From: an uncultured archaeon
GTDB taxonomy: Archaea; EX4484-52; JAADEF01
Assembly: GCA_964407715.1 (NCBI GenBank)
Contig: CAYOWP010000003.1
Location: 28,316 to 92,315, forward strand
Direction of reading: 5' to 3'
Length of the DNA: 64,000 nt
Shown here: positions 23,316 through 64,000 of the stretch, one piece after another
Layout: each line of letters begins with the position of its first letter
Position numbering within the stretch: the first letter of the stretch is position 1
Translations under genes and position numbers: made by a program
The notes under the pieces: model-generated
Seen by the model: only the letters and a program-made list of their open reading frames with translations
Told to the model about the DNA's origin: nothing
Databases searched by the model: none

Positions 23316-23990
23316 ACCTTTAAAAAAAGGTTAGTTGCTTCAATGCGGTTTTGATAGCAATATTTCCCGTTAACCATGTTCTTATTTTGGAAAATATGGT
23401 TAAAGGGAAGCATACCATCTCAATAGCGCGTTAGAGCAGCTAACCTTTCTAATGGATTAGTGAGCAGCTAACCTTTAATTAGGTTAGTATGCTGCAATGT
23501 GGTTGTGAAAGCGATATCTTCCCGTTAACCATATCATTTATTTTAAAAAATGGTTAAAGGGAAACATACCTCTCTCATTCAGCACATTAGAGCAGCTAAC
23601 CTTTTTATGCGGTTACCATGCTTCAAGACCTTAGTGATAGACGATTTCTTCCCGTTAACCATGTTCTTATTTTGGAAAATATGGTTAAAGGGAAGCTTAC
23701 CCCATCAACAGCACATTAGAGCATCTAACCTATTGCAAAGGGTTACCATGCTACAAAACCTTTGTGAAAGAGATTTCCTCCCGTTAACCATATTTCAAAA
23801 TAAAAATTTGGTTAACGAAACACCTACCCATATACCCAAAGCGCATTACAGCATCTAACCTGTTTAAGCGGTTAGCATGCTCTAAGAGCTGTGGTAATAA
23901 GGGAATTCTTCCTGTTAACCATTTTAAAAATGGTTAGCGAGATATATACTAATTCATTTTGCGTATCAAATCATCTAACCTTTCTAAGCA
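23316..23990 (+). repeat. Tandem array of ~120-150 bp hairpin modules (4 complete, 2 partial)
   Basis: Repeated GGTTAA.GGGAA.CATACC...GCAGCTAACC...GGTTA.CATGCT.CAA...CCCGTTAACC separated by AT-rich linkers. Confidence 0.92.
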
Positions 23991-24072
23991 GACAATAAGA
24001 ATAAAATTTATATATAGTTGGTTTTGTTAATATATTATTATAATTGGGTTCCGAATAGGAGGTGAAGGAAGG

Positions 24073-24654
24073 ATGGGACATAAAATATTATGGCATCCTG
24101 CGAAGTTTATAGATGAGAGAACAAAGAAAGATTTTGCAAGAGATGGCTATTGGTTCAGTTTATGGAGCAGCATAATTGTAGGGCTAACAGTAATCTTGTT
24201 ATCTCTAATATTTACAAAAAGCGGATATTATGTAGAAGAGCTAACAATAAAAAAAGGGATAGTCATTTTTCTTGTATCATTCTCAGTGTATTATCTTTTA
24301 AACATATTGAGCGCATTTCTCACCCGTGAAATTGTTGGAATGCTAAAAAAGGATATTCTCTTTTATAAAGCATTAGCTGCAGTATCATATCCTTATTTCC
24401 TTTTAAGTGTTGGCTTTGCATTAATGACAATCTTCGCGATTTTCCCTGGAATCAATATACTAACCCCTATAATAGGGATAATATTCATTGCAAGAAGTTA
24501 TGGAATCTATATTAGATTTTTACATGAATATGCTAAGTTGGACAATATAGAGGCATATGTTGCAAGTGTTATCCTGATAAGTGCATTAACATTTGGATTC
24601 ATCATTGGAGTAAACATCTTATCTGCTGTTCCAGGAAATGTATTTGGCATGTAA
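24073..24654 (+). CDS. Yip1-like 5-TM membrane protein
   Basis: ILWHP..F start and five hydrophobic segments. Confidence 0.6.
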   Translation: MGHKILWHPAKFIDERTKKDFARDGYWFSLWSSIIVGLTVILLSLIFTKSGYYVEELTIKKGIVIFLVSFSVYYLLNILSAFLTREIVGMLKKDILFYKALAAVSYPYFLLSVGFALMTIFAIFPGINILTPIIGIIFIARSYGIYIRFLHEYAKLDNIEAYVASVILISALTFGFIIGVNILSAVPGNVFGM

Positions 24655-24718
24655 GATGATTTAAAATAAGAGAAATCACTATAAAAACGCGAAGAGATAT
24701 CAAACTTTGAAGTATTGT

Positions 24719-27292
24719 TTATCTATATTCCTCTCCCCTCCATTTATCAAGTCTTCCCTTTTCACGAGCAGCGCTACCCAAAAATGTATGTGTCTCCTCT
24801 GGATGAAGAAGCATACCCTCAAGTGGATCATATGCATGCTCTATAATTACTCTTTTTTGCTCAGCAAGTAATGCCTCATTTATACCATAGAACTCTGGTG
24901 GTAATTTATCTGGAGGAATATCATTCTCCAAAGCAATCACCATATTCCTAAACACTAATGCACTTTGATAAATCCCATAACTCCCCATTTCCCATATAAA
25001 ATATGCATCCTTCATACCCTTCTGCCTCAAAAGATACATCCATTCGTATAATGTATACATCTCCTCATTTAACATAAACAACGGCCCATGTTGCCCACCA
25101 TAGGGTCTTGGAGCATTAACATGTAGCATCCTTATATACTTAGCCTCTCCATCATCTAATGTTTTCATATCTTCAACAGGGTCTATTAAATTAAGGGAAA
25201 GATGCTCAAAATCCATAGTATAAGCAAATAAATCCTTATATGGTCCTTGAGACCTTGGAATGATATCCTTATCAGGATTCTCAAGCAATTTTGATGCATA
25301 TTCAACTACGCTCTTAATTAGTATTATATGATCCTTTGCTTTCATAATTCTCAATCTACCTACTAAGCTCTCTCTAGAAGGCTGGTCAGTTTCTATAAAC
25401 ATCATAATTGGCTTTCCATCTGTTTTGCTTCCACCACGTTCTATATAATCCCATACACTATCATTATTAAATCTAACACCTTCAATATTAAGGGCCCCTA
25501 TTTTATATAACCACTCTGGTAATGTATCCATCGCCCACTCATCCTTAATAAATAAATGCCCTTGGATGTATTTTGCTGCTACTGCAGTAACAATATCCTC
25601 AGCAATCTGCAATGGTGTTCTTTGCTCCTTTGTGTAGATATAATCCTGAAATTCTCTTGTATATTTGTTAAGCCTATCCTTAAATGGCTTCTCTCCCATC
25701 CCATCAACATATTCATAGAAATCCTTCATTCTTTTGAACCCAAAATTTGTAGCTAAGATAACATCATCTGGGTCATATGCATCATCTATCTTAGTTTCGT
25801 ATCTTTTTCCAACGATTTCTTGCCATAAGTAATCCTTATACTTATACATAAATTTAGCTGTTAAGATATATGCAACCTCCTCGCTTGCTTCACATCCTTT
25901 AATTACTGTCCAATATTCAAATGCGTCATCATAATCCATTCCTGATCGCGTAACAATATATAATGCTCTAAGTGCTTTTCTCTCCATGTGTGTTATATCA
26001 AACTGGTAATATTCTTTATGTGTACCAGAAGATGCAATCTCCATTTCTTTTGAGTTAACTAGATTTGTTAGATGAATTTGTATAGTATGGATATTCAATC
26101 TATCTATATCCTCTGTTACAGGGTCAAATTCTGGAAGTATCCTTGGTAATAAGTTCCTTAATATTCCAAACTCCTCTGGTGCAAGAGATAACATGTGAAG
26201 TTTATCAGTGGTATCAACTTTCTTTGCTTTCTTTTCTATATCTTCTAATATCTCAATACTTCTTTCTAATATGCTCTTACTATCTTCCAATCTCTTCTTA
26301 TCTTCCTCTGATATTCCTTTTCTCTGTAGCATCTTAATAACATTCAAAAGATCCTTCTTTAATGCCTCTTTATGGTCTTCTATATTCTTAATCATTCTCT
26401 TTATATAATATCTCAAGATTTTCTTTCTAACATTCTCACGAAGCTCCTGTGCTCTCTTTATTCCCTCATCAAAGCTATCAAAATAATAGAAGTAAAGTCC
26501 TATTTCTGGTTCAATAGCCTGACCTCTCATCTCAAAAAATATACTTAGGAATCTTGCCTTAAAATAATCCTTAAACCTAAAATTCTTTAGAGGTTTGTAT
26601 ATTTTTCTATAGCATGGATCAACAAAATAATTATATGTTTTACCTTCAAATATTGTTTTTTCCTCTCCATCCAATTGCTTTATCCATATCCCCAAAGGAA
26701 TACCTGTGTATGAAAAAAGCTGTCCTCTCATATAATATCTCTCCTCTCCTGAAATACCAAACACTATATTAGGTCTTGGAGAGGAAGATGAGTGAAATAA
26801 AAAATATTTTGCTCCTAATATATCACCAGCCGCATATGCTGATCTCTGTATGCTTCTGTGATGTAATGTCCATTGATTTGCATATGCTATACATAAATCC
26901 ACGCCTGCCTCTCCAACAACAGGAGCATGTAATCCAACTTCCAATCCCTGATATCTCTTTGCCTCTTCTATCATCTTCCAGAGATATCTCTCGTTAATTT
27001 CTGATATTGCCTCAAAGTCTAATTGAATAAATTCAAATCCATAAAGTGCACCTTTCATATATTTTCTCATTAATCCCAAATCCTTAAATCCTTCAGGGGA
27101 TCTTTTTATTTGAGCAAATCCAGGAGTTACCCCAATTATATATCCCACAGGTCTATTGAGATCATCCCATCTCTTTTCTTTTTTATAATATAACCAATTA
27201 AAATCTATCTTTGCATTTTGATCTTTACTTCCTTTCTCCTGCTCTTTCTTGTTTTTATTTTTTTTATTGAACAAAAAGGAAAAGATACCCAT
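24719..27292 (-). CDS. Large xylose-isomerase/AP-endonuclease-2-like TIM-barrel protein with big helical insertions
   Basis: Ordered metal-ligand motifs GLHAP, FHSS, IETD, DFEH, LHVN, QH.P, IWE. Confidence 0.6.
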   Translation of the reverse strand: MGIFSFLFNKKNKNKKEQEKGSKDQNAKIDFNWLYYKKEKRWDDLNRPVGYIIGVTPGFAQIKRSPEGFKDLGLMRKYMKGALYGFEFIQLDFEAISEINERYLWKMIEEAKRYQGLEVGLHAPVVGEAGVDLCIAYANQWTLHHRSIQRSAYAAGDILGAKYFLFHSSSSPRPNIVFGISGEERYYMRGQLFSYTGIPLGIWIKQLDGEEKTIFEGKTYNYFVDPCYRKIYKPLKNFRFKDYFKARFLSIFFEMRGQAIEPEIGLYFYYFDSFDEGIKRAQELRENVRKKILRYYIKRMIKNIEDHKEALKKDLLNVIKMLQRKGISEEDKKRLEDSKSILERSIEILEDIEKKAKKVDTTDKLHMLSLAPEEFGILRNLLPRILPEFDPVTEDIDRLNIHTIQIHLTNLVNSKEMEIASSGTHKEYYQFDITHMERKALRALYIVTRSGMDYDDAFEYWTVIKGCEASEEVAYILTAKFMYKYKDYLWQEIVGKRYETKIDDAYDPDDVILATNFGFKRMKDFYEYVDGMGEKPFKDRLNKYTREFQDYIYTKEQRTPLQIAEDIVTAVAAKYIQGHLFIKDEWAMDTLPEWLYKIGALNIEGVRFNNDSVWDYIERGGSKTDGKPIMMFIETDQPSRESLVGRLRIMKAKDHIILIKSVVEYASKLLENPDKDIIPRSQGPYKDLFAYTMDFEHLSLNLIDPVEDMKTLDDGEAKYIRMLHVNAPRPYGGQHGPLFMLNEEMYTLYEWMYLLRQKGMKDAYFIWEMGSYGIYQSALVFRNMVIALENDIPPDKLPPEFYGINEALLAEQKRVIIEHAYDPLEGMLLHPEETHTFLGSAAREKGRLDKWRGEEYR

Positions 27293-27395
27293 ATAATTAT
27301 AGATATATCCTTGGGATAAATATATTTTTGGTTAACTGAGAGAGTAGTCTCTTATATTAGCAGATATCTTCTCAAAATAAGCAACATTTGATCTT

Positions 27396-27953
27396 CTAAA
27401 CAGGTATCTTTACACATCCCTGTTCTTGACAAAGAGTAAGTAAATAATTAACAGCATATTTATTTCCTAATATCACCCCATTAGGTAGTTTACAAAATGA
27501 ATATTCGTTATTAAGGTATATTTTCTCACCTTTCATATTGTCACACATCTTTTTTTCATATTCCTTTCCCATGAAATATCCATTTTTCTCTTGTGAGTCT
27601 GTAGGATATCCCTTTATTAAAATTAAAGTCCCATTTCTTAATATGCCAAATAATAATGGTACTCCTCCATCCCATTTGTAACCATAATGATCCTCTAAAT
27701 ACTTAGCATATTCACTTCCATCTTCTATTTTTACAACAGAAATACTTGGATATTTATCATGCATATCTTCCAGATAAGACATCATATAATGACAGTGAGG
27801 ACAAAAAGAAGAATAAATGAGATAGATGACACTACCATTGACATTTTCTTCATTTTCTTTTGGTAAGTTTTCCTCATTAACACAACCAGATAGAAATATA
27901 AAATTAACCAATAAAAACACAATGGATAAGTTAAGAATATCTCTTTTCTTCAT
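27396..27953 (-). CDS. Thioredoxin/glutaredoxin-like lipoprotein
   Basis: Lipobox LSGC, CPHC, cis-Pro GVP. Confidence 0.8.
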   Translation of the reverse strand: MKKRDILNLSIVFLLVNFIFLSGCVNEENLPKENEENVNGSVIYLIYSSFCPHCHYMMSYLEDMHDKYPSISVVKIEDGSEYAKYLEDHYGYKWDGGVPLLFGILRNGTLILIKGYPTDSQEKNGYFMGKEYEKKMCDNMKGEKIYLNNEYSFCKLPNGVILGNKYAVNYLLTLCQEQGCVKIPV

Positions 27954-27965
27954 ACTTCTCTCACC

Positions 27966-28619
27966 TTATATCATGAAAAATACAGCAATCAATAGCAGAC
28001 CAGCTATTAAATGCAAATATCTTATATTTTTTTCTCTCCACATAAGAATCTTTCGTGGCATTGTACCAAATCCTATAATCAAAGTAATAAGTATCATAGG
28101 TAATACAAAAATCAAGTTATAATATGCTAAATATATAAATTTGGACAATGAGAATCTCATCAATATCAATGCACTAAGATAAGGTCCTGAAGAACAAGGC
28201 AACAATAGAAGAGAGCACAACATAGCTACAGGAATAGCCATAAAAGGACTTGTAGTAGCTTTTATAACTTTCTGCGCTATTGGTCGAAAACGCATAGGCA
28301 TCTCCATAGCTATAAAGCCAGGTTTATATCTGAAGTATGCCTGTATTTCCATAAAAATCATTACAAGCAATAGAATTCTCAATATCCACTTAAGTATGCT
28401 TTCCATTCCTATCACATATATTATGCTTAAAATCCCAAGACCATAAAGAAAGTACATAACATATATTGTCAATGTGAAAAATATACCTCCTATTATTGCA
28501 CTTCTCCTTCCTTTAGTTATTAAAAGAGCTGATAGTAAGAGAGCTTGCACTGCTATCGTACAAGGATTAACTGCATCAACCAACGCAAGAAGAGTAATAT
28601 TCAAAAATTCATCAAACAT
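27966..28619 (-). CDS. CcdA/DsbD-like transmembrane disulfide transfer protein
   Basis: DAVNPC and LPCSSGPY, YNLIFVLP. Confidence 0.85.
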   Translation of the reverse strand: MFDEFLNITLLALVDAVNPCTIAVQALLLSALLITKGRRSAIIGGIFFTLTIYVMYFLYGLGILSIIYVIGMESILKWILRILLLVMIFMEIQAYFRYKPGFIAMEMPMRFRPIAQKVIKATTSPFMAIPVAMLCSLLLLPCSSGPYLSALILMRFSLSKFIYLAYYNLIFVLPMILITLIIGFGTMPRKILMWREKNIRYLHLIAGLLLIAVFFMI

Positions 28620-28753
28620 ATATAAAATTCCCTCTTATGCTATTTTAAAAAATTTTTTAATAACCTCATCTAAAAACTCTCTTTTTCTCTAAAAAATAAA
28701 GTAGCAATATATTCGTAGAAGCAACATCATCTTAACTAAAATTTTTATTAAAA

Positions 28754-29600
28754 TGGTTAACGAAAAGCAAATCTTGTCAATAGCACATTACACCAGCTAA
28801 CCTCAAAAAAGGTACCATGCTACAAAGCCTTCGTTGGAGGAATTCTTCCTGTTAACCATATCTCTTAATCTCTTAAAAAATAAAAAATTGGTTAACGGGA
28901 AACATAATCTCTTCATTCAGCATATTGAAGCAGCTATCCTTTTTAGAAAAGGTTAGCATGCTACGAAGCATTTGTGAGAGCGATATCTTCCCGTTAACCA
29001 TTATTTTAAAATAATTGGTTAACGGGAAACATACATTATCATAAAGCCATATCAGAGCAGCTAACCTTCAAAAGATGGTATCATGCTCCAAACCCTTTGG
29101 TAAGGCGATATCTTCCCGTTAACCAATTATTATTTTAAAAATTTGGTTAAGGGAAAAATAGCCAATTCATTTAGCATATCAGAGCATCTAACCTTCTTAA
29201 CCGGTTAGAAAGCAGCTAACCTTTAAAAGAGGTTAGCATGCTGCAAAACCTTTCGGAGAGATATTTTCTCCCCTTAACCATATCATTTATTTTAAAAATG
29301 GTTAAGGGGAACCATACCTTTCTCCTTCAGCATATTGAAGCAGCTAACCTCATGAAGGCGTTTTGAAAGCAGCTATCCTTTTTAGAAAAGGTACCATGCT
29401 GCAAAGCCTTTCTGAGAGCGATATTCTCCCATTAACCAATTTTTATTTTTTTTTTAAAATTAGTTAACGGGAAAACATACCTCATCGAGAACCACATTCC
29501 AGCAGCTATCCCTTTTTAAGAGGTTAGTGAGCCTCTAACCTTTCTAAGCAGTTATCATGCTACAAAGCCTTTGGTAATAGCGATTTTCTTGCGTTAACCA
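28754..29600 (+). repeat. Tandem array of 6 hairpin modules
   Basis: Units near 28755, 28890, 29017, 29145, 29300 and 29462, each ending TTAACC. Confidence 0.93.
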
Positions 29601-29670
29601 GTTTTCATTTATTTATTGGAGATAATTGAAAGAGAAACTTTTTTAAATCCAAAAAATATATGGAAATATT

Positions 29671-29730
29671 AGCGATGATTAAGCCGTCCCAGGATGATAA
29701 AAAGATGATTATTTAGGGTAGCTCATGAGC
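29671..29730 (+). ncRNA. Probable C/D-box guide sRNA 1
   Basis: C GCGATGA, ~15-nt guide, D' ATGA, C' AGATGA, ~16-nt guide, D ATGA; TATA-like TTTTAAAT about 25 nt upstream. Confidence 0.65.
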
Positions 29731-29764
29731 AGTACAATATCTTTTTCAAGAAATCTCATTAAAA

Positions 29765-29824
29765 AGGGCGATGATTAAAAGACCGTAAGATGATGTGTGA
29801 TTATGTGAACACCCAATGAGCCCT
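29765..29824 (+). ncRNA. Probable C/D-box guide sRNA 2
   Basis: Terminal stem AGGGC/GCCCT; C GCGATGA, guide, D' ATGA, C' TGTGTGA, guide, D ATGA. Confidence 0.7.
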
Positions 29825-34101: not shown

Positions 34102-34364
34102 GACATTGTCCAATAATTCTTTATTGTTAAGTGAAAACATAACCTCTCACAGAAGCGCATGAGAGCAGTTAACCCTTTGAGTAAGGCTACGCTTCCCGTT
34201 AACAAATTATTTTGAATAGATAAAAATTGTTAACGGGAAGAAATCGCTATTACTACAGGTTTTGTAGCATGTCATCTTTAAGGTTCGCTACTTTAATGCG
34301 CTTCTTTAAAAGGTTACTTTTCCGCTTAACAAAATTTGTTGATATGGAATTATTGGACAATGTC
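34102..34364 (+). mobile_element. MITE-like element copy M3
   Basis: TIRs GACATTGTCCAATAATTC / GAATTATTGGACAATGTC; perfect 9-bp TSD CACATTCAA (34093-34101, 34365-34373). Confidence 0.92.
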
Positions 34365-34373: not shown

Positions 34374-34911
34374 GAGTCATATTACAGCAGATAACCTTTT
34401 TTTGGCATATTACTTGCATTAACTAAACTCTTTATTTGGAAAATGGTTAAGGTAAAATATTCTCTCAATCAAGCACATTAGAGGGCAGATGATCTCTCTC
34501 TGAAAAATGATAGTGCGAGAAAAAACCTTCATAATGAGATCCTTAATAATTTTAGAATTTATTTTATAAAATCTGGTTAACAGGAAAATATCGCTAACAT
34601 AAAGATTTTGCAGCATGGCATCTTTTTAGGTGGTTAGCCGCTCCAATGTAATTGCTTTAGTGGTATGTTTCTCGTTAACCAAATTTTTATTTTGAAAGAT
34701 GGTTAACGCGAGGAAATCGTTTTCACAAAGGCTTTGCAGCATGCTAACTTTTTTTGGTTATCTGCTTTTGATATGGATCATCTCCTGTTTAATAAAATTG
34801 GTTAAGAAAAATTTAATCTCCTTCTTAGGAGTATTACAGCAGCTAACCTTTTTTTAGCAGGTTATCATGCTGCAAAAACTTTCGTAATAATGTTTTTTTC
34901 TTCTGTTAACC
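34374..34911 (+). repeat. Mixed-orientation hairpin-module array (degenerate forward, two reverse, one forward)
   Basis: Reverse units near 34575-34680 and 34701-34790; forward unit near 34800-34910. Confidence 0.85.
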
Positions 34912-35096: not shown

Positions 35097-35254
35097 GGCA
35101 TTGTCCAATAATTTTTTGATGAGGATTTGTTAACGAGAAAATTCGTTCTTACAATCGCATTAGCTCTACAAGGTTCGCTACTTTAATGCGCTTCTTTAAA
35201 AGGTTACTTTTCTGCTTAACAAAATTTGTTGATATGGAATTATTGAACAATGCC
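35097..35254 (+). mobile_element. MITE-like element copy M4 (short form) at the tRNA-Ser 3' end
   Basis: TIRs; perfect 9-bp TSD CGTTTTTTG (35088-35096, 35255-35263). Confidence 0.92.
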
Positions 35255-40188: not shown

Positions 40189-40890
40189 TGGTTAACGGGA
40201 AAAATAACCTCTCTCTTTGGGTATTGAAGCGCCTAATCCTTTTGAAAGAGGAACTATGCTGCAAACCAAAGTGTAGAGTGATATCCTCCCGTTAACCATT
40301 TTTTATTTGGAAGATGGTTAAGGGAGACATTCCTTATCAATAGCACATTAAAGCAGCTAACCTTTCTAACCGGTTAGGAAGCAGCTAAACCTTTTTAAGT
40401 GGTTAGCATGCTGCAAGACCTTCTGGAAAAGCGATTTCCTCCCGTTAACCAAAATTTTTATTTTTTGAATTGGTTAACTGGAAGCATACCCAATGAACAA
40501 GCCATAGCAAAGCAGCTAACCTTTTTAAGCGGTTTAGAAGCAGCTAAACCTTTTTGGAAAGGATGCCATGCTGCAATATCCTTTGTGTTAGCGATTTCCT
40601 CGCGTTAACCAGATTTTTATTCAAAATAATTGGTTAACGGGCAGCATACCTTGTCAAGAAAGCACATTACAGCAGCTAACATTTTTAAGCGTTTTGGAAG
40701 CAGCTGACTATCTCATGGGAAGTTAACATGCTCAAAGATCCACTGTAATGGTTATCTCTTCTGTTAACCTTTTCTTTGAAATAAAATAAAGATCTGTTTA
40801 AGTGGAATAATAACAAATGAATGAGCCATCCTATAGCAGTTAATCTTTCTGAGCAGATAGGAAATAGCTATCCTTGTTAATAAGTTGCCA
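40189..40890 (+). repeat. Tandem array of hairpin modules (4 plus 1 degenerate)
   Basis: Units near 40190, 40316, 40472, 40632 and 40796. Confidence 0.92.
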
Positions 40891-40914: not shown

Positions 40915-41221
40915 GGCATTGTCCAATAATTCTTTATTGTTAAGCGGAAACATAACCTCTCACAGAAGCACATGAGAGCAGTTAACCCTTCATAGCGATT
41001 ATGAAGCAAGTAACCTTTCAACAATGTTAACCTGCCCCAAAACCCTTTGAATAGAGCTACGCTTCCCGTTAACAAATTGTCCAATAATTTTCTGATGAGG
41101 ATTTGTTAACGAGAAAATTCATTCTTACGATTGCATTAGCTCTATAATGTTCGCTACTTTAATGCACTTCTTTAAGAGGTTACTTTTCCGCTTAACAAAT
41201 AGAGAATCATTGAACAATACC
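40915..41221 (+). mobile_element. MITE-like element copy M5 (longest, two-module form)
   Basis: Left TIR intact, right TIR GAATCATTGAACAATACC; 17-bp direct repeat CAATACCTCAATTGCAT at 40898 and 41215. Confidence 0.85.
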
Positions 41222-41276
41222 TCAATTGCATTAAACCTCAAAAATATAAATTAGCGAAGAGATAATAAAAATATTT

Positions 41277-41783
41277 ATGGAACTTCCATCATCTTTTTTG
41301 CTGGGTGCTATAATTACCATTTTGCTTATATTGGCATCATTTATCGTTGGTTATCACATCATCAATGAGATAGGTTCTTTTTATGGATATAAAAAAGGAG
41401 TGGATTTGTATCAGGAAATTTCAAAACTTGTAAATTACATGTACTATCAAACGGAGGGGTCTTCAAAGATCGTTACTATACCTCTAACTCCAAATGATGA
41501 AATTCTATGTTTAATAAACTATGAGGATGTGGAGTCGTACGCGGAATCTGCTAATTATCTGCGAGATTATGATAGAAAGTATTTAAAGGAAATAATACCA
41601 GAAGAAAATTTAAAAAGAGATATTCCGATAAATATGTATTATCACAGGCGAAATCATCAGCCACAGGTATATAGCATAAAATATCTACGACCAGAGCATA
41701 CCTTCTGTCTCAATAAAACCTCAGAATTATATTTTGAGAATAAAGGATATTATATTACTGTAATGCCTGTAATAGAGAAATAA
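41277..41783 (+). CDS. Hypothetical protein with an N-terminal TM (possible minor pilin-like)
   Basis: Hydrophobic N-terminus, helix, then GSSKIV. Confidence 0.55.
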   Translation: MELPSSFLLGAIITILLILASFIVGYHIINEIGSFYGYKKGVDLYQEISKLVNYMYYQTEGSSKIVTIPLTPNDEILCLINYEDVESYAESANYLRDYDRKYLKEIIPEENLKRDIPINMYYHRRNHQPQVYSIKYLRPEHTFCLNKTSELYFENKGYYITVMPVIEK

Positions 41784-41796: not shown

Positions 41797-43188
41797 TTAA
41801 GAAGAGGCAAAATACCTCTTACCTTTATTATCTTTGCCTTCTAAGGTTGCATTATCCAATTTTAAGTCGCCTATGACAGATATCTTCGGTATTATCTCAT
41901 ATCTAAAAATCCTCACTTCTCCTGGTTTTAATGTACCTATTCTCCATTCAATTATATATCCAGTCTTTGTTTTATGTATCTTAGAAGGTTTTGGAAGTAT
42001 GGAAGATTCATCTATATTAAAGATTCCTTTAATATGATCTCTTAATATCACCTCTTTTAGCTCCTTCATTTTATGATTTGTTATCTTTAAAATGATGTTA
42101 TATCTATGTCCTTTGATATAGAACTCTTTTATAATCTTTGGTGATGTAAAGGAAACAAATAGCAATACAAGTAAAGTGAGAAGAATAAGTAGGATCACAT
42201 ATAATATCCAATAATTAATCTGAATTCCAAAGGTACATTCCTCATTTACATCAAGATCACAAAGAATAACATAGCGGCCATTCTTCTTTATAGGACTCAT
42301 ACCCTTAAAATTATATATCCATATAAATCCTCGTGTTCCAACATCATAGGTATATGTAACAGGAGTATTTCCCTTATTGATTACTTTCATTTCGATATAT
42401 TTATAGAATGCATTTTCTTTAACATTAGAGTATTCCTTTACATTAAAAGTCCTTTTAACTTTAAAAGTATGTCTATTTTCATTTATCTTTTTTCCTCTAT
42501 CATCATATATCTCTACAATTATCTCATAGTTTCCTGGTTTTCTTTGTGGATCCACATGAATATCAGCAACAATAATATCTGATTCACCAACATTTAATGA
42601 AATTGGCTCATATTTTCTATAAAATCCAATTTTAGGCACTTTTATTATTACTGAATATTTTTCAGCATCTAGTTCACCAATATTTGATATGTGAACATAT
42701 ATTGTTTGGGTTTTATTTGCTTCTATTTCCGGAAACTTTACTCCAATCTTAGTAATATCTAAAAGAGGTCTATCGAGAATATAAAGAGATTTTTTAATTG
42801 TTGCTAATACTTCTTTTGTTATGGAATTTTTTACATATACATAGAAATAATATCTCCCTCCTTTAACTAAAGAAGGAATAGTTATCTCCATATCCGTCTT
42901 AGCTGTAGAATAAGGAGATATATGAATAGGATTTTTATTCCACGTAAACCATCCTTCTCTTCCTAATGCATAAATATCTATGTACACATCTATAGATGCT
43001 GAGTTATTATTCAATATAGATATATTTCCTTTAATTATATCCCCTGGATAAATCACATCTCTATCCAAGTTAACTTCTAATATTAAATTTTCTGTTGATG
43101 TGGATTGTGCAAATACAGATGGAAAGATAATAAAACACATAATTAAGAAGATATTAATATATTTCCGGATATTTATATCACAAACCAT
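41797..43188 (-). CDS. Surface protein with Ig-like/CARDB domains, a TM and a C-terminal DUF11-like domain
   Basis: Signal peptide, I.N.G motifs, PGNYEI, TM, W.IG.LKPGE. Confidence 0.75.
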   Translation of the reverse strand: MVCDINIRKYINIFLIMCFIIFPSVFAQSTSTENLILEVNLDRDVIYPGDIIKGNISILNNNSASIDVYIDIYALGREGWFTWNKNPIHISPYSTAKTDMEITIPSLVKGGRYYFYVYVKNSITKEVLATIKKSLYILDRPLLDITKIGVKFPEIEANKTQTIYVHISNIGELDAEKYSVIIKVPKIGFYRKYEPISLNVGESDIIVADIHVDPQRKPGNYEIIVEIYDDRGKKINENRHTFKVKRTFNVKEYSNVKENAFYKYIEMKVINKGNTPVTYTYDVGTRGFIWIYNFKGMSPIKKNGRYVILCDLDVNEECTFGIQINYWILYVILLILLTLLVLLFVSFTSPKIIKEFYIKGHRYNIILKITNHKMKELKEVILRDHIKGIFNIDESSILPKPSKIHKTKTGYIIEWRIGTLKPGEVRIFRYEIIPKISVIGDLKLDNATLEGKDNKGKRYFASS

Positions 43189-43294: not shown

Positions 43295-43525
43295 CATGTT
43301 GCCCAATAATATATTTTGAAAATTTTGTTAACGGGAAACAATGCTATTCAAAAGATTTTAGAGTATGCTATCTTTTTCAATGGTTACCTGCCGTACAGTA
43401 TGTTTTTAATATGCCTATGTCTCCCCTTAACCATTTTTATCCTTTTTAATTTGGTTAATGAGAAACTTTCGCTTTCACTAAGGTAGTGCGGCATAGTAAC
43501 CTGGTTAAAAATATTGGACATCACT
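43295..43525 (-). repeat. Degenerate TIR-like-bounded element holding two reverse-oriented array modules
   Basis: TTGCCCAATAAT ... ATATTGGACA ends; internal GTTAACGGGAAA...CCCCTTAACC-linker-GGTTAA. Confidence 0.65.
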
Positions 43526-48060: not shown

Positions 48061-48318
48061 GGCTTTGTCCAATAATTCTTTATTGTTAAGCGGACACATA
48101 ACCTCTCACAGAAGCGCATGAGAGCGGTTAACCCTTTGAATAGGGCTATGCTTCCCGTTAACAAATTGTCCAATAATTTTTGATGAGGATTTGTTAACGA
48201 GAAAATTCGTTCTTACGATTGCATTAGCTCTACAAGGTTTGCTGCTCTAATGGGCTTCTTTAAAAGATTACTTTTCCGCTTAACAAAATTTGTTAATAAA
48301 GAATTATTGGACAATGCC
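48061..48318 (+). mobile_element. MITE-like element copy M6 (no TSD evident)
   Basis: TIRs GGCTTTGTCCAATAATTC / GAATTATTGGACAATGCC. Confidence 0.85.
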
Positions 48319-51603: not shown

Positions 51604-51760
51604 GGCATTGTCCAATAATTTTTGATGAGGATTTGTTAACGAGAAAATTCGTTCTTACGATTGCATTAGCTCTACAAGGTTTGCTGCTCTAATGGGCTTC
51701 TTTAAAAGATTACTTTTCCGCTTAACAAAATTTGTTAATAGAGAATTATTGGACAATGCA
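51604..51760 (+). mobile_element. MITE-like element copy M7 (short form)
   Basis: TIRs; flanks tgCTCCATT / caCTCCATT (7/9). Confidence 0.85.
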
Positions 51761-57517: not shown

Positions 57518-58408
57518 ATGGAAAGAACTGTAAGAGAGGAAATAGAATATTTAAAAAAGAGAGAAAGTTTTTATGAAAAAATAAAGGAGATAGACTGGAA
57601 TTTTATATCTATTGTCACGGCATCAACTTTCTCAGCAGCATTTTTAATATCTATAAATATATTTTACATAAGGAATTTAGAAATACCAGGTAAAGTGTTT
57701 TTCTCAAATGTTATAAATATAATTGCATTGACTTTATTCTTAATTCCGCCAACCATATATAGATATACCAAGTATTTGAATATGAAAGAAATTGAGGAAA
57801 AATTCCCATTATTTATGAGAAATGTAGTTGAGGGATTAAGGAGTGGAATGGATTTGCAAAAGGCATTTATTTATGCTGCACGAAGTAATTATGGAGCACT
57901 TGATCCATATATAAAGAAACTTACTTATGAATTATCATGGGGAATCTCTTTTAATAGAGCAATTCTTAATTTCGCTAAAAGAATAAAAAATCCTCTAATA
58001 ACAAGAGTGATAGCAACAATTCTTGAGGCATATAGATCAGGAGGAAATTTGGCAGATGTTATGGAAGCTGTAACAAGATCAACTTTTGAAATTGAAAAAA
58101 TAAAAAAAGAAAGAAGTGCAAGTATACATGGACAAATGGTCCAAGGATATGTAATCTTCATAATTTTCTTAGGTGTAATGGTTGGATTAACACGATTTCT
58201 TATACCGGCTATCTCACAGTCCTCCCCAGAAGGTATAGTGATAAATGCAGAAGAATATAAAAGGATATTTATGCATTTAGCAACGATTCAAGGCATATTT
58301 GCTGGATTAGCTATAGGTAAATTGGCAGAAGGTAGAATCTCTGCAGGTTCAAGACATGCTATAATTCTATCCTTAATTGCATATAGCGTCATGAGCATAT
58401 GCGCATAA
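57518..58408 (+). CDS. Type II secretion F (TadB/TadC-like) platform protein
   Basis: FP.F.R...E..RSG, SWG, SGG....V, IQGIFAGL.IG. Confidence 0.9.
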   Translation: MERTVREEIEYLKKRESFYEKIKEIDWNFISIVTASTFSAAFLISINIFYIRNLEIPGKVFFSNVINIIALTLFLIPPTIYRYTKYLNMKEIEEKFPLFMRNVVEGLRSGMDLQKAFIYAARSNYGALDPYIKKLTYELSWGISFNRAILNFAKRIKNPLITRVIATILEAYRSGGNLADVMEAVTRSTFEIEKIKKERSASIHGQMVQGYVIFIIFLGVMVGLTRFLIPAISQSSPEGIVINAEEYKRIFMHLATIQGIFAGLAIGKLAEGRISAGSRHAIILSLIAYSVMSICA

Positions 58409-58412
58409 CAAA

Positions 58413-58769
58413 TTAGTTTTCATCAATCAAAGAAAAAATGCTCATTAAAACAACTGCTATACTTGTTGTTGAAATCAAATAGAGATATAACAAGCTGAAT
58501 ATCGTGCTGGTAATATTTGCTAATGATAGCACAAGAGATATTGCATTCATACTTAAGATTATAGATAAATATTTAATAATAATCCATTTTAATTCATGTG
58601 CATATATTATATTTATCACTGCAACTATTATTCCCAATATAAGCGAGCCTATAAAAGCCCATATATTGTTTATCTTAAACAAAGCCAACAAAAAAGAAAT
58701 TACGATGGCAATAGCATATATCCAAAAAGGTATAGAAACATTTCTATCCTCTTTCTTTCTCTCTCTCAT
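58413..58769 (-). CDS. Small 4-TM membrane protein
   Basis: Four hydrophobic segments. Confidence 0.55.
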   Translation of the reverse strand: MRERKKEDRNVSIPFWIYAIAIVISFLLALFKINNIWAFIGSLILGIIVAVINIIYAHELKWIIIKYLSIILSMNAISLVLSLANITSTIFSLLYLYLISTTSIAVVLMSIFSLIDEN

Positions 58770-58827
58770 ATTTTAGATTATAAATAAAATGAATTTTTTA
58801 AATTTTTCGGTATAATCTTGTAATCAG

Positions 58828-59125
58828 AGCATTGTCCAATAATTCTCTATTTGTTAAGCTGTTAAGCGGAAACGTAAACTCTCACAGAAGCGCATGAGAG
58901 CAGTTAACCCTTCATAGCGATTATGAAGCAAGTAACCTTTCAACCATGTTAACCTACTCCAAAACCTTTTGAATAGGGCTATGCCTCCCGTTAACAAATT
59001 GTCCAATAATTTTTTGATGAGGATGTGTTAACAAGAAAATTTATTCTTATAATCGCATTAGCTCTACAAAGTTTGCTGCTCTGATGCGCTTCTTTAAGAG
59101 GTTACTTTTCCGCTTAACAAAATTT
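58828..59125 (+). mobile_element. MITE-like element copy M8, right TIR missing
   Basis: AGCATTGTCCAATAATTCTCTATTTGTTAAGC left end, TGTTAAGC tandem duplication, both internal modules present. Confidence 0.8.
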
Positions 59126-59160
59126 TATTGATAATCAAAAATCATGTAAACTTTTTGGAA

Positions 59161-59710
59161 AAGTTACATCAGAACAGCTAACCTTTTTTTAGGAAGTTAC
59201 CTCACCGTGAAGCCTTTGTGAGAAGCGATTTCCTCTCGTTAACCAAAATTTTTATTTTTTGAATTGGTTAACGGGCAGCATACCCAATGAATAAGCCATA
59301 GCAAAGCAGCTAACCCTCACGATAGCGTTTGTAAAGCAGCTAACCCATTGCAAAGGTTACCATGCTGCAATGTGCTTTGGAGAGCGATTTCCTACCGTTA
59401 ACCAGTTTTTATTATTGGTTAAGGGGAAGCATACCATCTCAAAGCACATATTACAGCAGCTAGCCTCTCTGAGGGGTTACCATGCTGCAATGTGGTTGTG
59501 AAAGCGATATGTTCCCGTTAACCATATTTTTAAAATAAAAAATGGTTAAGGGGAAGCATACCTCTTTCATTCAGCGTATCATAGCAGCTAACCTCTCTGA
59601 GGGGTTACCATGCTGCAATGTGCTTTGTGTTAGCGATTTTCTCCTGTTAACCAGTTTTTATTATTGGTTAAGTTAAAGCATATCCATATAAGAAAGCATC
59701 TCGAAGGAGT
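59161..59710 (+). repeat. Tandem array of hairpin modules (3 complete, 2 partial)
   Basis: Units near 59266, 59417 and 59543 with degenerate edge units. Confidence 0.92.
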
Positions 59711-59800
59711 CAAACCTTATACCTATTCACACCAAAAATTCCCCCAAATAAATTAATTTTTTAAAATCATTATTATCTTTAATTTTTTTAAGGTGAAATT

Positions 59801-60052
59801 ATGCCTACTAAATTGAAATCGGCAGCAAGGTTTGGGGCGAGATATGGATTAAAAATAAAAAGAGAGGTAGCAAAAATAGAAAAACTTTCAAGGGCAAAAC
59901 ATGAATGTCCAAACTGCTTTAAAAAATCATTAAAAAGAGAAGCTGCAGGAATATGGGTATGCAAATCATGCGGATATAAAATGGCTGGTGGAGCATATCA
60001 GCCGTTTACTGATGCATCAAAAATTATGGAAAGAATATTCAAGAACATTTAA
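59801..60052 (+). CDS. rpl37ae: 50S ribosomal protein eL43 (L37Ae)
   Basis: RFGARYG, CPNC, R.AAGIW.CKSC, AGGAY.P. Confidence 0.96.
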   Translation: MPTKLKSAARFGARYGLKIKREVAKIEKLSRAKHECPNCFKKSLKREAAGIWVCKSCGYKMAGGAYQPFTDASKIMERIFKNI

Positions 60053-60070
60053 TGCGAGGTGATAAAAGAT

Positions 60071-60211
60071 ATGGCGTTATATGTCTGTTTTCATTGCAGA
60101 ACCGAGATAGATATCAAAGATGTAAATCAAAATATTGTATGCCCAAAATGTTCTGGAAGAATATTCTTTAAGCAACCTCCATCAGTAAGAAGAAGAATAA
60201 AAGCAGAATAA
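60071..60211 (+). CDS. rpoP: RNA polymerase subunit Rpo12 (P)
   Basis: Manual translation MALYVCFHC...IVCPKCSGRIFFKQPPSVRRRIKAE (46 aa, too short for the ORF track); RBS GAGGTGA; conserved position after L37Ae. Confidence 0.93.
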   Translation: MALYVCFHCRTEIDIKDVNQNIVCPKCSGRIFFKQPPSVRRRIKAE

Positions 60212-60218
60212 CAAAAAT

Positions 60219-61268
60219 CTAATCTTCAAAATCATCCACAATCACATAAGGTATAGGAGATAAAAAACTGAAATTACAATGAAAGTTATATGCTCCAACA
60301 TTCAAAAATGTTAATGTATCTCCTATCTCAATATCATTTTCAAAGCATGCTGAATATCTAAAAATATCTAAACTGTCTAATGTGTTCCCTTTAATAGTAT
60401 AGCAATATTTGCCATTTTGGCTCTCTTCCAAGATAGGCAACCTATGATGTAAAAGATATGTATCCATATAGGCATTGTATATGGAAGCGTTAACAACCAA
60501 TGTTTTCTCATATTTATTTATCACTTTAACCTTCAACCTCACAGAAGGTGCGGCAATATATCTTCCAGGTTCCATCACCAACTTTATATTTAAATCATTA
60601 AGTTTTTTTCTAAAGATATCAATATTGTAAAATATATATTTGAGATCCGGCTTTGAATTTATATATTTCCATGGTATTCCACCACCTATATTAACATATC
60701 TTATATCGTATTTTTTAAGGAAATTCTCACTAAACATATCAAAAAAATCCTCAAAGATATACCACTCACCAATATTTTGAGTTCTCTTGTGGAAATGCAA
60801 TCCAAGATTATACTTATTTGAGAGATCATATCTTTTAATAATGTCCTCAATTTTTTTCCAGGAAATACCATAAACAAAGTATTTACCCGTATAAAATGTA
60901 TGTTCCCTATATTTCACCCTGATATAGATGTCTTCAACATCTCCAACAGAAATAACCTTTTTTAAATCATTCTCATTATCAACGATAAATTTTTTAATTC
61001 CCTTATCAAGTATTTTTTCAATTTCTTCTTTTGATTCGGAGTGTACATAGTATAGGCTTTTCTTTAAAGTATCCTCATCCAAATCTCGAAGACTATTGAT
61101 GTGATTCAAGCATAAACCAATTCCATCATTCATCTTTGTAATCAGTTTTCCTATAAAAGGATTCGTCTTATGTGAGTAAAATACAATATCCGATCTCCGC
61201 TTTAGATCCCATATTCTTCTTTTTATCTCTTTTTTGCTTACAATAAAAAAGGGTTCTTTATATTTCAT
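60219..61268 (-). CDS. PLP-dependent group IV (Orn/DAP/Arg-type) decarboxylase
   Basis: YSHKTN (PLP Lys), HFH, NIGGG, EPGR, GAY. Confidence 0.85.
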   Translation of the reverse strand: MKYKEPFFIVSKKEIKRRIWDLKRRSDIVFYSHKTNPFIGKLITKMNDGIGLCLNHINSLRDLDEDTLKKSLYYVHSESKEEIEKILDKGIKKFIVDNENDLKKVISVGDVEDIYIRVKYREHTFYTGKYFVYGISWKKIEDIIKRYDLSNKYNLGLHFHKRTQNIGEWYIFEDFFDMFSENFLKKYDIRYVNIGGGIPWKYINSKPDLKYIFYNIDIFRKKLNDLNIKLVMEPGRYIAAPSVRLKVKVINKYEKTLVVNASIYNAYMDTYLLHHRLPILEESQNGKYCYTIKGNTLDSLDIFRYSACFENDIEIGDTLTFLNVGAYNFHCNFSFLSPIPYVIVDDFED

Positions 61269-62391
61269 AAAACAAAATTTGATTCATAAAAATTTAAAAT
61301 ATTGCAACATAAAGAAACATATGGTTCACATAACCTCGCCGCCAGATATAATAGTAAGTTCCAAAAATCCTAAAAAAATAATATTAGCAAGTAATTTCTC
61401 ATATAACCTGAATCTTTTAAGCAAGTACAAAGATTTAAGCTATCAATTAAAATTAAACGAGATAAAGAAGTTCTTATATTTCAGAAATAAATTTGATTTT
61501 GGAATAGGAGAGATAAATCCAAAGGATAAAAGAAACTTAGAGAAATTACAGTTTATGATTATGAGCAAAACAGCACCAGAAATAGAAGTAACTCTAAAAA
61601 GAAAAATATATAACAAACAAATCGAGGATAATTTACCCCCTTTTAAAATATCTTATCTCTTTAAAAACATAGAAGATATTGATAACATAAAAATTCCAAA
61701 GCATGTAGAGAAGGTATATTATGACTATGATTTGAAAGCAATAGATGGAATGCTATATCTTTATAAGAAAGGATATGATATAGAAAATATCTCACGATAT
61801 TTAAGTATGGGCATATTGGGAAAAGAAGCAAATAGAAGGATCATACCTACAAAGCATGCCATTAGCGCATCTGATAGTTATATCGCAGATAAAATGATAA
61901 AAAACATAAGAACATACGAGATTTTGGATGAAATATATCTCTTTTATGGGGAACATTATGATAATCACTTCACAATTCTTTTTCTTCCAAGAGAATTCTC
62001 CTTTGAGCTAATTGAAATTATAAGATACAAATCTCATCCAATTATCAAAGCAGACTATGAGGACTTTTATGGAAGAAAAACATATGCTGAAAACACAGGC
62101 GGTGGTTATTATGCCATAAGATTTGGAATAACAGAATATTTAGAACACTTAAAAAAGCAAGCATCAGTGGTGGTGGTAAGGGATATAAAGCCATCATATT
62201 ACATGTCCTTAGGGGTGTGGGTATTAAGAGAGAGCATAAGAGAAATCACATCAAAAAAATTGCCAAAGCGTTTTAGCAATATAAATCTTGTTCTTGAATA
62301 TTTAAAACAAAAAAGTGAAGCTATGGTGTATAAGAAGCTATCAAAAAGCTTTGTGATAAGGAGCTTTATCAAACAACGTAAGTTATTTTGA
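61234..62391 (+). CDS. nreA: Nre-family DNA repair protein (likely start 61321)
   Basis: SPP, RRIIPT..AISA.D, DYE.F.GR..YA....G.YYA.R, Y...LGVWVLRE; terminal PIP-like QRKLF. Confidence 0.85.
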   Translation: MLTIKKGSLYFIKQNLIHKNLKYCNIKKHMVHITSPPDIIVSSKNPKKIILASNFSYNLNLLSKYKDLSYQLKLNEIKKFLYFRNKFDFGIGEINPKDKRNLEKLQFMIMSKTAPEIEVTLKRKIYNKQIEDNLPPFKISYLFKNIEDIDNIKIPKHVEKVYYDYDLKAIDGMLYLYKKGYDIENISRYLSMGILGKEANRRIIPTKHAISASDSYIADKMIKNIRTYEILDEIYLFYGEHYDNHFTILFLPREFSFELIEIIRYKSHPIIKADYEDFYGRKTYAENTGGGYYAIRFGITEYLEHLKKQASVVVVRDIKPSYYMSLGVWVLRESIREITSKKLPKRFSNINLVLEYLKQKSEAMVYKKLSKSFVIRSFIKQRKLF

Positions 62392-62409
62392 GAAGGAAAA
62401 TTCTATTCT

Positions 62410-63807
62410 CTAATATAGATATGCATTAAGATAATAAGCATTCTCTCCTTTTAATTTGAAGTCCTTCTCAATTATTTTTTCATCTTTAATTATTTTCACA
62501 TGATAATTGGAAATCTTTTTGTTTAACATAAATTCTATCTCGTATTCTATCTTTGAAGCGTAATTATATATATTAAGAGAAGGTATTTGTAAGTTCTCAT
62601 ATAACCTTACATTATTAAATTCCACATGCTCTATATTGCGCGGAAGATAAAAAGCGTGAAAAACTTTGCCACTATTGCTTATCTTTATATTTAAAAATAG
62701 TTTATTAAATGCTCTAATAAAAAGAAACATCATCTCAACAATTTTATTTTCTGATTTAAGTTTATCAATCAAAGAGAAGTTTATTATATCATAGAAAGTG
62801 TTCGAGAATGTCTCTAAGAGATTGTATCCCTCACGATAATGTCCCTCATCTATTAATTTATTAGATAAGAGCAAAGTATGATATAAGCTCCTACCAAGGA
62901 TATTCTCATCAGCCCCTTCCATCCATGAAACCTTTTTTCCTTGTAAATCATCTACAAAAATTTTCATATCCTTAGATAAGGATTTTTCATATTCTTTAAG
63001 AAGTTTTCTATTTATTCTGCGATACAAATAATAATCTCGCAATACCTCATAGAACTTATTTGAGAAAATAGCATGCTTTAAATATGCGTAAAAGTAATTA
63101 TATATTCTCTTTATTGAAGTATTGTTAATATCAACTATTTCTTCTTTTTGTTCAACTGGAGAAAATATAAGATATGCGCTATCATATCTATCAATATCAT
63201 CAGAGATATAGAGGTCAAGCACAGGTATGTCCTTATTTAATGTGGTTTTTAATGTTGCTATATGTTTAAAAATGTTTTTATCCTTTGTGATCTTTATGTT
63301 CTTATCATATTGCCATTCCATCTTGATTTCCTTTCCTGGAGTTCCTATAAGTATTTCCTTATTGCAAACACCATCTCTTAAAGAAATAATCAATGCATCA
63401 CGAAGATCATCATATGATACCTTTATAGTTTCTTCTTTTTCTGCACTCATCTCAATAAAAACATCCACAGATACAGGAATATTCCTCTTTGAATAGGAAT
63501 AGTCAGAAACCTCTAAGGATATATTTGCAATATCTCCCTTAACATTGGATAACATCCTAACCTTCATATTTCTCTTGTGATCTCTTATGAATTCCATAAG
63601 TGTTGAAAGCAAATATGACTCATAATACTTTAATGAATTATTTGGATATGCTGTATCGAATACATTGAATTTCAAATAAATCTTAATTCCATTATTAAAT
63701 TGGATTACAACATAATTATTATTGAAATCTGAATATACCTTCATATAAGATGCTATAAATAATATCTCCTCAGATTTCAAAGATACTTTATTTTTTATGA
63801 TTACCAT
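62410..63807 (-). CDS. Hypothetical protein
   Basis: 465-aa ORF, no recognisable motif. Confidence 0.6.
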   Translation of the reverse strand: MVIIKNKVSLKSEEILFIASYMKVYSDFNNNYVVIQFNNGIKIYLKFNVFDTAYPNNSLKYYESYLLSTLMEFIRDHKRNMKVRMLSNVKGDIANISLEVSDYSYSKRNIPVSVDVFIEMSAEKEETIKVSYDDLRDALIISLRDGVCNKEILIGTPGKEIKMEWQYDKNIKITKDKNIFKHIATLKTTLNKDIPVLDLYISDDIDRYDSAYLIFSPVEQKEEIVDINNTSIKRIYNYFYAYLKHAIFSNKFYEVLRDYYLYRRINRKLLKEYEKSLSKDMKIFVDDLQGKKVSWMEGADENILGRSLYHTLLLSNKLIDEGHYREGYNLLETFSNTFYDIINFSLIDKLKSENKIVEMMFLFIRAFNKLFLNIKISNSGKVFHAFYLPRNIEHVEFNNVRLYENLQIPSLNIYNYASKIEYEIEFMLNKKISNYHVKIIKDEKIIEKDFKLKGENAYYLNAYLY

Positions 63808-63865
63808 AATCTAATATTTAAGATAAATGAAAATATATATTTTAAATTTGCCAATTCGAAAATGC

Positions 63866-64000
63866 CCTCCTCACAAGATATCAAAAGGTTATGTACTGCA
63901 AATCCTTTGTAAGAAGCGATTTCATATAGTTAACCAAAATTTTTATTTTTGAAATGGTTAACGGGCAGCATACCTTATCCATAGCATATTACAGCAGCTA
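63866..64000 (+). repeat. Start of another hairpin-module array, truncated by the window end
   Basis: CTGCAA...AGCGATT...GTTAACC-linker-GGTTAACGGGCAGCATACC...GCAGCTA. Confidence 0.88.

Follow-up and report, generated by a model that had tools for sequence, protein, structure and literature searches.

The window analysed here is a stretch of 64,000 nucleotides from an uncultured archaeon (assembly GCA_964407715.1, contig CAYOWP010000003.1, positions 28,316 to 92,315; part of contig C3 in what follows), and it carries a dispersed family of palindromic repeats with a basic unit of about 108 bases, which lie between genes either singly or in head-to-tail arrays. An earlier description made from the letters alone (the original prediction) had located such units at eight places, and had seen in them either an array of structured guide RNAs or elements similar to the repetitive extragenic palindromes (REP) and bacterial interspersed mosaic elements (BIME) of bacteria. 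Searches with nhmmer and with a covariance model confirmed that all eight loci carry the repeat. At E <= 0.001 the model located units at 32 separate places in the window, 22 of the type first described (the main type) and 10 of a second type with TGTTAAC ends. The eight loci are the following:

5557-5619, minus strand: partial unit beside tRNA-Cys, a piece found by nhmmer and missed by the covariance model at E <= 0.001
23317-23980, plus strand: array of four full units (23398, 23552, 23683 and 23810) between divergent genes, with a lone right half at its start and a lone decayed left half at its end (repeat recovered over 23317-23920)
28755-29599, plus strand: array of six units between divergent genes, three short (103-110 nt) and three long (135-138 nt, with an extra inner module)
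34575-34911, mixed orientation: three units (minus, minus, plus) upstream of tRNA-Ser
40190-40769, plus strand: array of four units (one short, three long) downstream of an 826-aa open reading frame (ORF), with a period of 160 in Tandem Repeats Finder (TRF); more decayed units come after it
43327-43432, minus strand: isolated unit in a divergent gap, upstream of the DNA ligase gene
59266-59652, plus strand: array of three units (one long, two short)
63956-64000, plus strand: start of a unit cut by the window end (covariance model positions 1-47)

The source assembly consists of 16 contigs with 898,521 bp and 31-35% G+C, and is rated 92% complete. Its gene content is archaeal in kind, including an ATP-dependent DNA ligase, a RIO kinase, a Hef-like DEAD/ERCC4 helicase-nuclease and a diphthamide synthase. 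Neither the small-subunit (SSU) nor the large-subunit (LSU) rRNA gene was found in the assembly despite this rating; a genome of the same genus (G001) has both, on one contig. The host is presumably a small-genome, DPANN-like archaeon, a label that stays provisional because the rRNA gene is missing. Furthermore, the segment C9:262-43957 is a reverse-complement duplicate, 100% identical, of C8:7161-50856, and removal of this redundancy of about 44 kb leaves 854,509 bp (about 855 kb). Contig C9, as a duplicate of part of C8, was left out of the counts of loci, orientation, lengths, linkers, terminal inverted repeats (TIRs) and gene gaps.

The abundance of the family is well above chance. In the window, the 12-mer GGTTAANGGGAA occurs 38 times with at most one mismatch, against a mean of 1.02 and a maximum of 5 in shuffled sequences (none of 100 reached 38), and its genome-wide count is 429. 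A hidden Markov model built from eight window units gave 558 matches by nhmmer in the assembly, corresponding to 411 non-overlapping pieces in 123 loci before C9 was dropped. In the non-redundant genome there are 118 loci, covering 38,214 of 854,509 bp (4.47%), and all of them are intergenic when gene contexts are taken from crude greedy calls of ORFs of at least 90 aa. Arrays longer than 350 bp number 45, the longest reaching 946 bp, and TRF reported periods of 128-130, 155 and 160, with arrays at 23.4, 29.0, 40.3 and 59.4 kb of the window. So much repeat DNA had been called unexpected, and the share is far above that of the relatives sampled: repeated DNA makes up 9.3% of a 180-kb sample of this genome and about 2% or less of samples from three relatives (77 kb of G001, 25 kb of G003 and 193 kb of G005).

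As regards the structure of the unit, the grammar given in the original prediction was reproduced by the consensus of 26 units, GGTTAACGGGAAnCATACC ... AGCAGCTAACC - spacer - GGTTAsCATGCTGCAA ... AGCGATTTCTTCCCGTTAACC, with linkers of 11-32 nt. The complementarity proposed for the arms also held at consensus level: pairing was found in 78.4% of the cells, a share that drops to 43.5% or less once the partner is shifted by 1-3 columns. When the left-half consensus is aligned with the reverse complement of the right half, 38 of 51 columns agree (score 22); in direct orientation the score is 6, and the highest among 200 shuffles is 3. Thus, the unit is an inverted doublet of a half-repeat of about 50 nt, which starts with GGTTAAC and finishes with GCTAACC, the two inverted halves being placed around a spacer of about 12 nt. 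Each half runs from GGTTA to TAACC, which gives four such sites per unit, and every unit also matches the covariance model on the opposite strand, with a lower score. The two variable segments that lie between the arms (V1 and V2) had been thought to face each other in a long bulged hairpin. This arrangement was rejected, as duplexes between V1 and V2 of the same unit (-7.95 kcal/mol) are no better than those formed across units (-8.08 kcal/mol); to judge from the alignment of the inverted halves, the two segments are homologous, diverged positions.

Two forms of the unit predominate. Among 167 oriented units, 88 measure 100-109 nt and contain one inner hairpin, and 65 measure 130-139 nt and contain two; the long form (about 40% of units) carries one extra copy of an inner module of about 29 nt, and in the array at 40.3 kb TRF also finds a period of 29. 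Segment lengths are kept: in a genome-wide set of 111 simple units of at most 115 nt, from which identical copies and 13 units of a deletion sub-type had been removed, V1 has 23 nt in 73, V2 18 nt in 64 and the spacer or loop 12 nt in 68. The linkers joining units head to tail measure about 21 nt (20-23 nt in 82 of 145) and contain 92.7% A+T, compared with 69.7% in other intergenic DNA. In 87 of the 91 linkers that have both, a T-run stands ahead of an A-run, so that each unit is flanked like a two-way hairpin terminator. The units keep no constant reading frame, as had been claimed, since periods of 128-131 and 155-160 do not hold it; protein coding was dropped on this ground, the ORFs over the arrays being only short and isolated.

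The units differ widely in sequence, and not evenly along their length. The arms are the most alike between units, with a pairwise identity of 79.5%; the variable segments reach 48.2% and the loop or inner spacer 43.8%, and random sequence of the same composition gives 26.9%. Taken together with the kept lengths, the identity of the arms points to a constraint on sequence and spacing and not on pairing. Moreover, the two halves of a unit have almost separate histories: in only 4.5% of the 111 units do the left and right halves share their nearest relative, and the identities of left and right halves are weakly correlated (rho 0.13). The nearest relative lies in the same array for 7% of units, against 1.5% by chance. 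The arrays are therefore not recent tandem duplications, and their halves have been reshuffled genome-wide, presumably through gene conversion or recombination acting on the cores that they share.

Two of the arrays recur, with over 99% identity, in two independently assembled metagenome contigs (L012 and L013), and hence the arrays are not an artefact of a single assembly. Contig L013 is 99.7% identical to window positions 22691-24002, and all four differences fall inside arrays. Between L012:4570-7743 and C11:1-3076, 14 of the 16 substitutions listed first are inside arrays, where there is also a gap of about one unit (the offsets differ by 130 bp). The differences seen with these contigs include a clustered run of substitutions and a 2-nt indel in a linker. 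They could be real variation or repeat mis-assembly.

The TGTTAAC-ended units, absent from the earlier list and found at 5.1, 34.1-34.3, 35.1, 40.9-41.2, 48.2, 51.6 and 58.9-59.1 kb, belong to a sister element. This element ends in GCATTGTCCAATAATT, with TIRs of about 16 nt, has either one or two such units inside it and measures 115-390 bp; its ends have 126 matches at two mismatches or fewer. Exact flanking direct repeats of 7-11 bp, mostly 9-10 bp, accompany 16 of 45 TIR pairs, against 3 of 2000 mismatched controls. The TIR-bounded element is thus a true MITE (miniature inverted-repeat transposable element), and clearly a mobile one. The members seen in the window are:

5103-5359, plus strand: TIR-bounded MITE (ends GCATTGTCCAATAATT) with two TGTTAAC sub-type units, inverted
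8770-8915 (C3:37085-37230), plus strand: two TIRs 146 bp apart and a 9-bp direct repeat, of the MITE family, missed by the unit models
34103-34363, plus strand: TIR-bounded MITE of the same type as that at 5103-5359, with a 10-bp direct repeat (CACATTCAAG) on its flanks
35098-35253, plus strand: short MITE form with one unit and a 9-bp direct repeat (CGTTTTTTG), inserted a few bases past the 3' end of tRNA-Ser
40916-41230, plus strand: MITE-type units beside the 40.2 kb array; the left-end TIR is present in two copies and the right end is decayed (right boundary placed by eye)
48062-48317, plus strand: MITE with two units
51605-51759, plus strand: short MITE form with one unit
58829-59119, plus strand: MITE-type units carrying TIR copies of the left end, immediately upstream of the array at 59.2 kb

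Over the 118 loci, TIRs stand on both sides of 30 and on one side of 20; of the 45 arrays exceeding 350 bp, 39 lack them on either side. Two MITE-type units of 94 nt, at 48192-48285 and 51634-51727 and thus 3.4 kb apart, are identical, and compared with the main-type units, whose average identity is about 65%, the MITE sub-type looks much younger. Regarding an autonomous partner, no pair of TIRs lies 0.6-3 kb apart in the assembly.

The guide-RNA side of the original prediction was examined in terms of folding, covariation and targets. Single units fold better than shuffled sequences on both strands (z from -3.3 to -6.7 in eight folds), which is no evidence of a selected fold because the consensus is palindromic. 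The RNAalifold consensus reaches only -1.09 kcal/mol, with pairing confined to the 5-nt ends GGTTA/TAACC and none of the five predicted pairs compensatory; as each unit holds four such sites, the program pairs any GGTTA with any TAACC. For the hairpin that was specified, covariation was absent, the control being a shuffle of the 3' letters among units within columns and long units being excluded. In 26 units 78.4% of the cells were paired, and in shuffles 79.0 +/- 0.5% (467 of 500 equal or higher; covariation score 0.077 vs 0.080), and in the 111 genome-wide units 81.86% against 81.69 +/- 0.25% (128 of 500 equal or higher; score 0.1001 vs 0.1031). Between 18 and 22% of the stem cells are unpaired and uncompensated. 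Local hairpins in a cloverleaf-like arrangement, visible by eye in a few units, showed no excess over column shuffles (-1.44 vs -1.26 +/- 0.20 kcal/mol) and were discarded as well. At the Rfam gathering score the window yields only two tRNAs, and at E <= 1 nothing matches the arrays between 23 and 42 kb.

Targets for the variable segments were not found either. In the organism's own non-repeat genome, searched with a k-mer index, the longest exact match averages 12.8 nt for V1 (11.9 in shuffles) and 11.9 nt for V2 (11.4), and none reaches 18 nt; in the rRNA loci of relatives the longest match is 12 nt, a length exceeded by shuffles, which reach 14-15 nt. Guides directed at either were consequently rejected, as the excess over mononucleotide shuffles is small (12.8 vs 11.9 and 9.3 vs 8.8 nt) and is put down to natural k-mer content. 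Furthermore, the variable segments are still 48% identical between units, compared with 27% for random sequence of the same composition, and they are therefore diverged homologues and not acquired guides.

The family seems to be restricted to a single lineage. The conservation that the guide proposal called for was not seen, as the covariance model found the family in none of 41 other genomes of the order, and a DNA search in none of 40 relatives. Species-representative genomes gave only three single matches, attributable to chance and in unrelated bacteria, and no viral contig carried the family. The only metagenome contigs found with it are the two mentioned above, both more than 99% identical to the source genome. 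The nearest relative is distant (63% identity in the RIO kinase), and an analogous, diverged family was sought and not found in the samples of G001, G003 and G005. In the titles and abstract openings of the papers listed by searches on DPANN MITEs, DPANN intergenic hairpin repeats, archaeal intergenic palindromic tandem repeats and archaeal RAYT or REPIN elements (the REP-associated tyrosine transposase and the inverted REP doublets discussed below), no such arrays are described for these archaea. The description of the repeats as new thus stands for this particular family, which matched nothing, but not for its kind, which is already known.

With respect to gene context, the repeats occupy 49 of 138 divergent gaps (35.5%), 38 of 431 co-directional gaps (8.8%) and 14 of 139 convergent gaps (10.1%), an odds ratio of 5.5 for divergent against other gaps (Fisher test, p 4.5e-13). 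Per kb of non-repeat intergenic DNA, the values are 1.69 for divergent gaps against 1.06 and 0.99 for the others, an excess of about 1.6-fold, and much of the divergent-gap excess may reflect longer gaps. A repeat-flanked enzyme gene, in the setting known for RAYTs, was also sought. The ten proteins flanked by repeats turned out to be housekeeping or of unknown function, including a HAD hydrolase, the Hef-like helicase-nuclease, diphthamide synthase, NIF3, a winged-helix protein and unknowns.

Some further genes lie next to the arrays. Four array-adjoining ORFs, at 24719-27292 (minus strand, 857 aa), 41797-43188 (minus, 463 aa), 27966-28619 (minus, 217 aa) and 41277-41783 (plus, 168 aa), have no Pfam family at E <= 0.001, the 463-aa ORF giving a weak CARDB match (E 0.006). 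A winged-helix regulator of the ArsR/HTH_20 type (22374-23252, minus strand) directly adjoins the 23.3 kb array, and the winged-helix protein at C6:11124-11852 has arrays on both sides. This adjacency is probably due to chance, since there is one repeat locus about every 7 kb.

Two other roles for the recurrent motifs were considered and dropped. A link of GTTAAC with restriction-modification is not indicated, the site occurring outside the repeats at 0.49 of expectation, which is unremarkable among palindromes, and a role of the 12-mer like that of an uptake signal was set aside by reasoning, as the 12-mer is confined to the units. Outside the repeats several palindromic hexamers are avoided (GTCGAC 0 vs 63 expected; CGATCG and GACGTC 2 vs 63 each; ACTAGT 12 vs 290), which may be due to restriction-modification systems or to avoidance of CTAG and CG.

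Among the described systems, the closest are REPINs and BIMEs. REPINs are inverted REP doublets that form hairpins and occur in tandem clusters (PMC3116915). The likeness to REPINs and BIMEs (PMC3116915, PMC2817692) lies in several features: an inverted doublet of a shorter repeat is able to fold into a long hairpin; the repeat has two variants whose orientation alternates, and the spacers between them are alternately of two types; there are tandem clusters; and the elements are strictly extragenic and of high copy number. In the present family, the doublet able to form a hairpin around a spacer is the one seen in the 38 of 51 agreeing columns and in the pairing of the arms, and the inner spacer of about 12 nt alternates with the A/T linker of about 21 nt in tandem units with distinct left and right halves. 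The differences are also clear. The half-repeat of about 50 nt forms no stable palindrome, whereas a single REP is a short imperfect palindrome of 20-40 nt. The GTAG (or CGTC) tetranucleotide that stands at one end of REP (PMC3733652) is present in none of the 111 units (terminal 10 nt, either strand) nor in the consensus. No RAYT was found in the 92%-complete assembly, and the host is archaeal. Moreover, the arrays are longer (up to 946 bp, in a family that takes 4.5% of the genome) and neighbouring units are not near-identical copies. Strict membership in the REP/RAYT group thus fails for lack of the tag, of a RAYT and of a short palindrome in the half-repeat. The REP/BIME-like alternative of the original prediction stands as regards the inverted halves, the two alternating spacers, the intergenic location, the high copy number and the mobile sister element, but not as regards the tag and the RAYT.

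The BOX elements of Streptococcus pneumoniae, built as boxA-boxB(n)-boxC with the count of boxB modules varying (PMC3049150), offer a second comparison, based on build and not on sequence. In both cases outer modules with pairing ends enclose a variable number of inner modules, here one or two (88 and 65 of 167 units), and both are restricted to a lineage, with module number varying between genomes, here between two assemblies. They differ in that whole units are repeated head to tail in the present family, and in that its loci favour divergent gaps. MITEs are represented directly by the TGTTAAC sub-type, and the main type shares with them inverted outer arms of 12-13 nt; it differs by the 39 large arrays lacking TIRs, by the absence of visible duplications at its solo units, and by the lack of a matching transposase. 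By contrast, the resemblance to guide-RNA arrays (CRISPR, H/ACA sRNA, IS110 bridge RNA) is only outward, with conserved paired arms and less conserved segments between them, since the variable parts are homologous and not unrelated inserts, and neither covariation, nor an IS110 recombinase, nor targets were found.

From this evidence, we consider it rather probable that the family is a lineage-specific, modular, non-coding and non-autonomous palindromic DNA repeat of the REPIN/BIME/BOX type, related to a MITE and with arms kept by sequence recognition. The arms are far better conserved than the rest and show no compensatory change, which points to a partner that recognises their sequence, either a DNA-binding protein or a mobilising enzyme, and not to an RNA fold. 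The family would have spread as DNA. Its TIR-bounded members may have been moved by cut-or-copy transposition, with an enzyme supplied in trans from outside the assembly, and the TIR-less arrays may have grown and been reshuffled through unequal crossing-over, slippage and gene conversion between GGTTA(A/G)C cores. Such reshuffling at shared cores would explain the near-independent histories of left and right halves. If transcribed, a unit with its A-run and T-run flanks would act as a two-way hairpin terminator. A guide function is unnecessary to explain the data.

Several observations weigh against this reading. No mobilising enzyme was found: profiles for six families (Y1/RAYT, DDE_Tnp_1, TnpB, IS256, IS110 and rve), to which the transposase search was limited, gave no match in the 92%-complete assembly, so that the suggested linkage to a Y1/RAYT, IS110-like or IS256 enzyme found no support. 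The RAYT profile (PF01797) was negative in this genome and positive in 6 of 14 named genomes used as control, and the profile for IS110-type (DEDD) recombinases (PF01548) was likewise negative in this genome. At solo main-type units without TIRs no target-site duplication was seen by eye; accordingly, transposition is claimed only for the TIR-bounded type, the outer arms of the main type being inverted repeats with no duplication seen. The units are old, with about 65% mean pairwise identity overall, yet GGTTAA/TTAACC is kept in 110 of the 111, which a purely selfish, dead family would not do, and the tight segment lengths hint at a constraint on spacing. The preference for divergent gaps is opposite to that of BOX, RUP, SPRITE and insertion sequence (IS) elements, which are over-represented between convergent genes (PMC3049150). 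Finally, mismatches that would be G:U on the complementary strand number 268, against 187 on the given strand, and in co-directional gaps the units are antisense to the chosen orientation in 12 arrays and sense in 3 (43 arrays were scored over all gap types). Together, these two asymmetries give a weak hint that one strand may matter as a single strand.

The alternative that best survives is that of a DNA element used by the host. Domesticated mobile DNA, with protein-binding sites (four GGTTA(A/G)C per unit), cruciforms or terminators, would insulate or shape the region between divergently transcribed genes. In E. coli, BIMEs are bound by integration host factor (IHF), gyrase and DNA polymerase I (Pol I). 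Use by the host is unlikely here, but three features keep it in consideration: the arms are conserved, the spacing is retained and divergent gaps are favoured. The conservation of the arms with no compensatory change, the tightly kept segment lengths, the occupation of more than a third of divergent gaps and the A-run/hairpin/T-run geometry of the linkers all agree with it. However, the divergent excess per kb is modest and perhaps a matter of longer gaps; divergent genes need no terminators between them; and the ten repeat-flanked proteins include no candidate binding protein. Besides, a useful element would be expected in relatives, but none of the 41 genomes of the order has it, and the 77-kb sample of the same-genus genome shows no dispersed repeat family.

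It is improbable that the repeats are inert debris, left by an old transposon burst and decaying neutrally under no constraint or activity. The failure to find an enzyme of the six families, the lack of covariation, the absence from the relatives searched and the edges of the arrays, which fade into degenerate copies, are what such debris would show. Neutral decay, however, should affect all columns alike, in conflict with the contrast between arms and variable segments and with the retention of GGTTAA/TTAACC; few indels occur in the variable parts, identical pairs exist among the MITE-type copies, and the differences in arrays between two assemblies of the same population suggest ongoing change, or else assembly error.

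More doubtful still is the structured RNA array, in which each unit would form a bulged hairpin of about 110 nt with its two variable segments as a guide pocket like that of H/ACA or bridge RNAs: the folding of single units, the variable segments of kept length between conserved arms, the strand asymmetries and A/T linkers that could hold archaeal TATA-like and oligo-T signals agree with it, but it meets no covariation, variable segments that are homologues, no long match to the own genome or to the rRNA of relatives, no IS110, TnpB or HUH partner, no Rfam family and no occurrence in the relatives searched.

There is likewise only a very slim chance that the repeats are a working, lineage-specific system recognised by sequence, with a hairpin RNA of about 110 nt or a cruciform from each unit, forming a new archaeal guide or decoy array located mainly between divergent promoters. 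If this were true, the A/T linkers would serve as promoter and oligo-T terminator for each unit, a protein would hold the four GGTTA(A/G)C arms, and the two length-constrained, fast-evolving segments of the unit would form a recognition pocket.

Small-genome archaeal symbionts are thought to be streamlined. In the present genome, presumably that of such an archaeon, 4.5% of the DNA belongs to a single modular palindromic repeat, with no recognisable transposase. From a practical point of view, such arrays break or scramble metagenome assemblies. For the biology of these elements, the genome offers a clean natural case for asking how REPIN/BIME-like repeats arise and persist outside bacteria, whether they can do so without a RAYT, and why their arms are conserved while the rest drifts.

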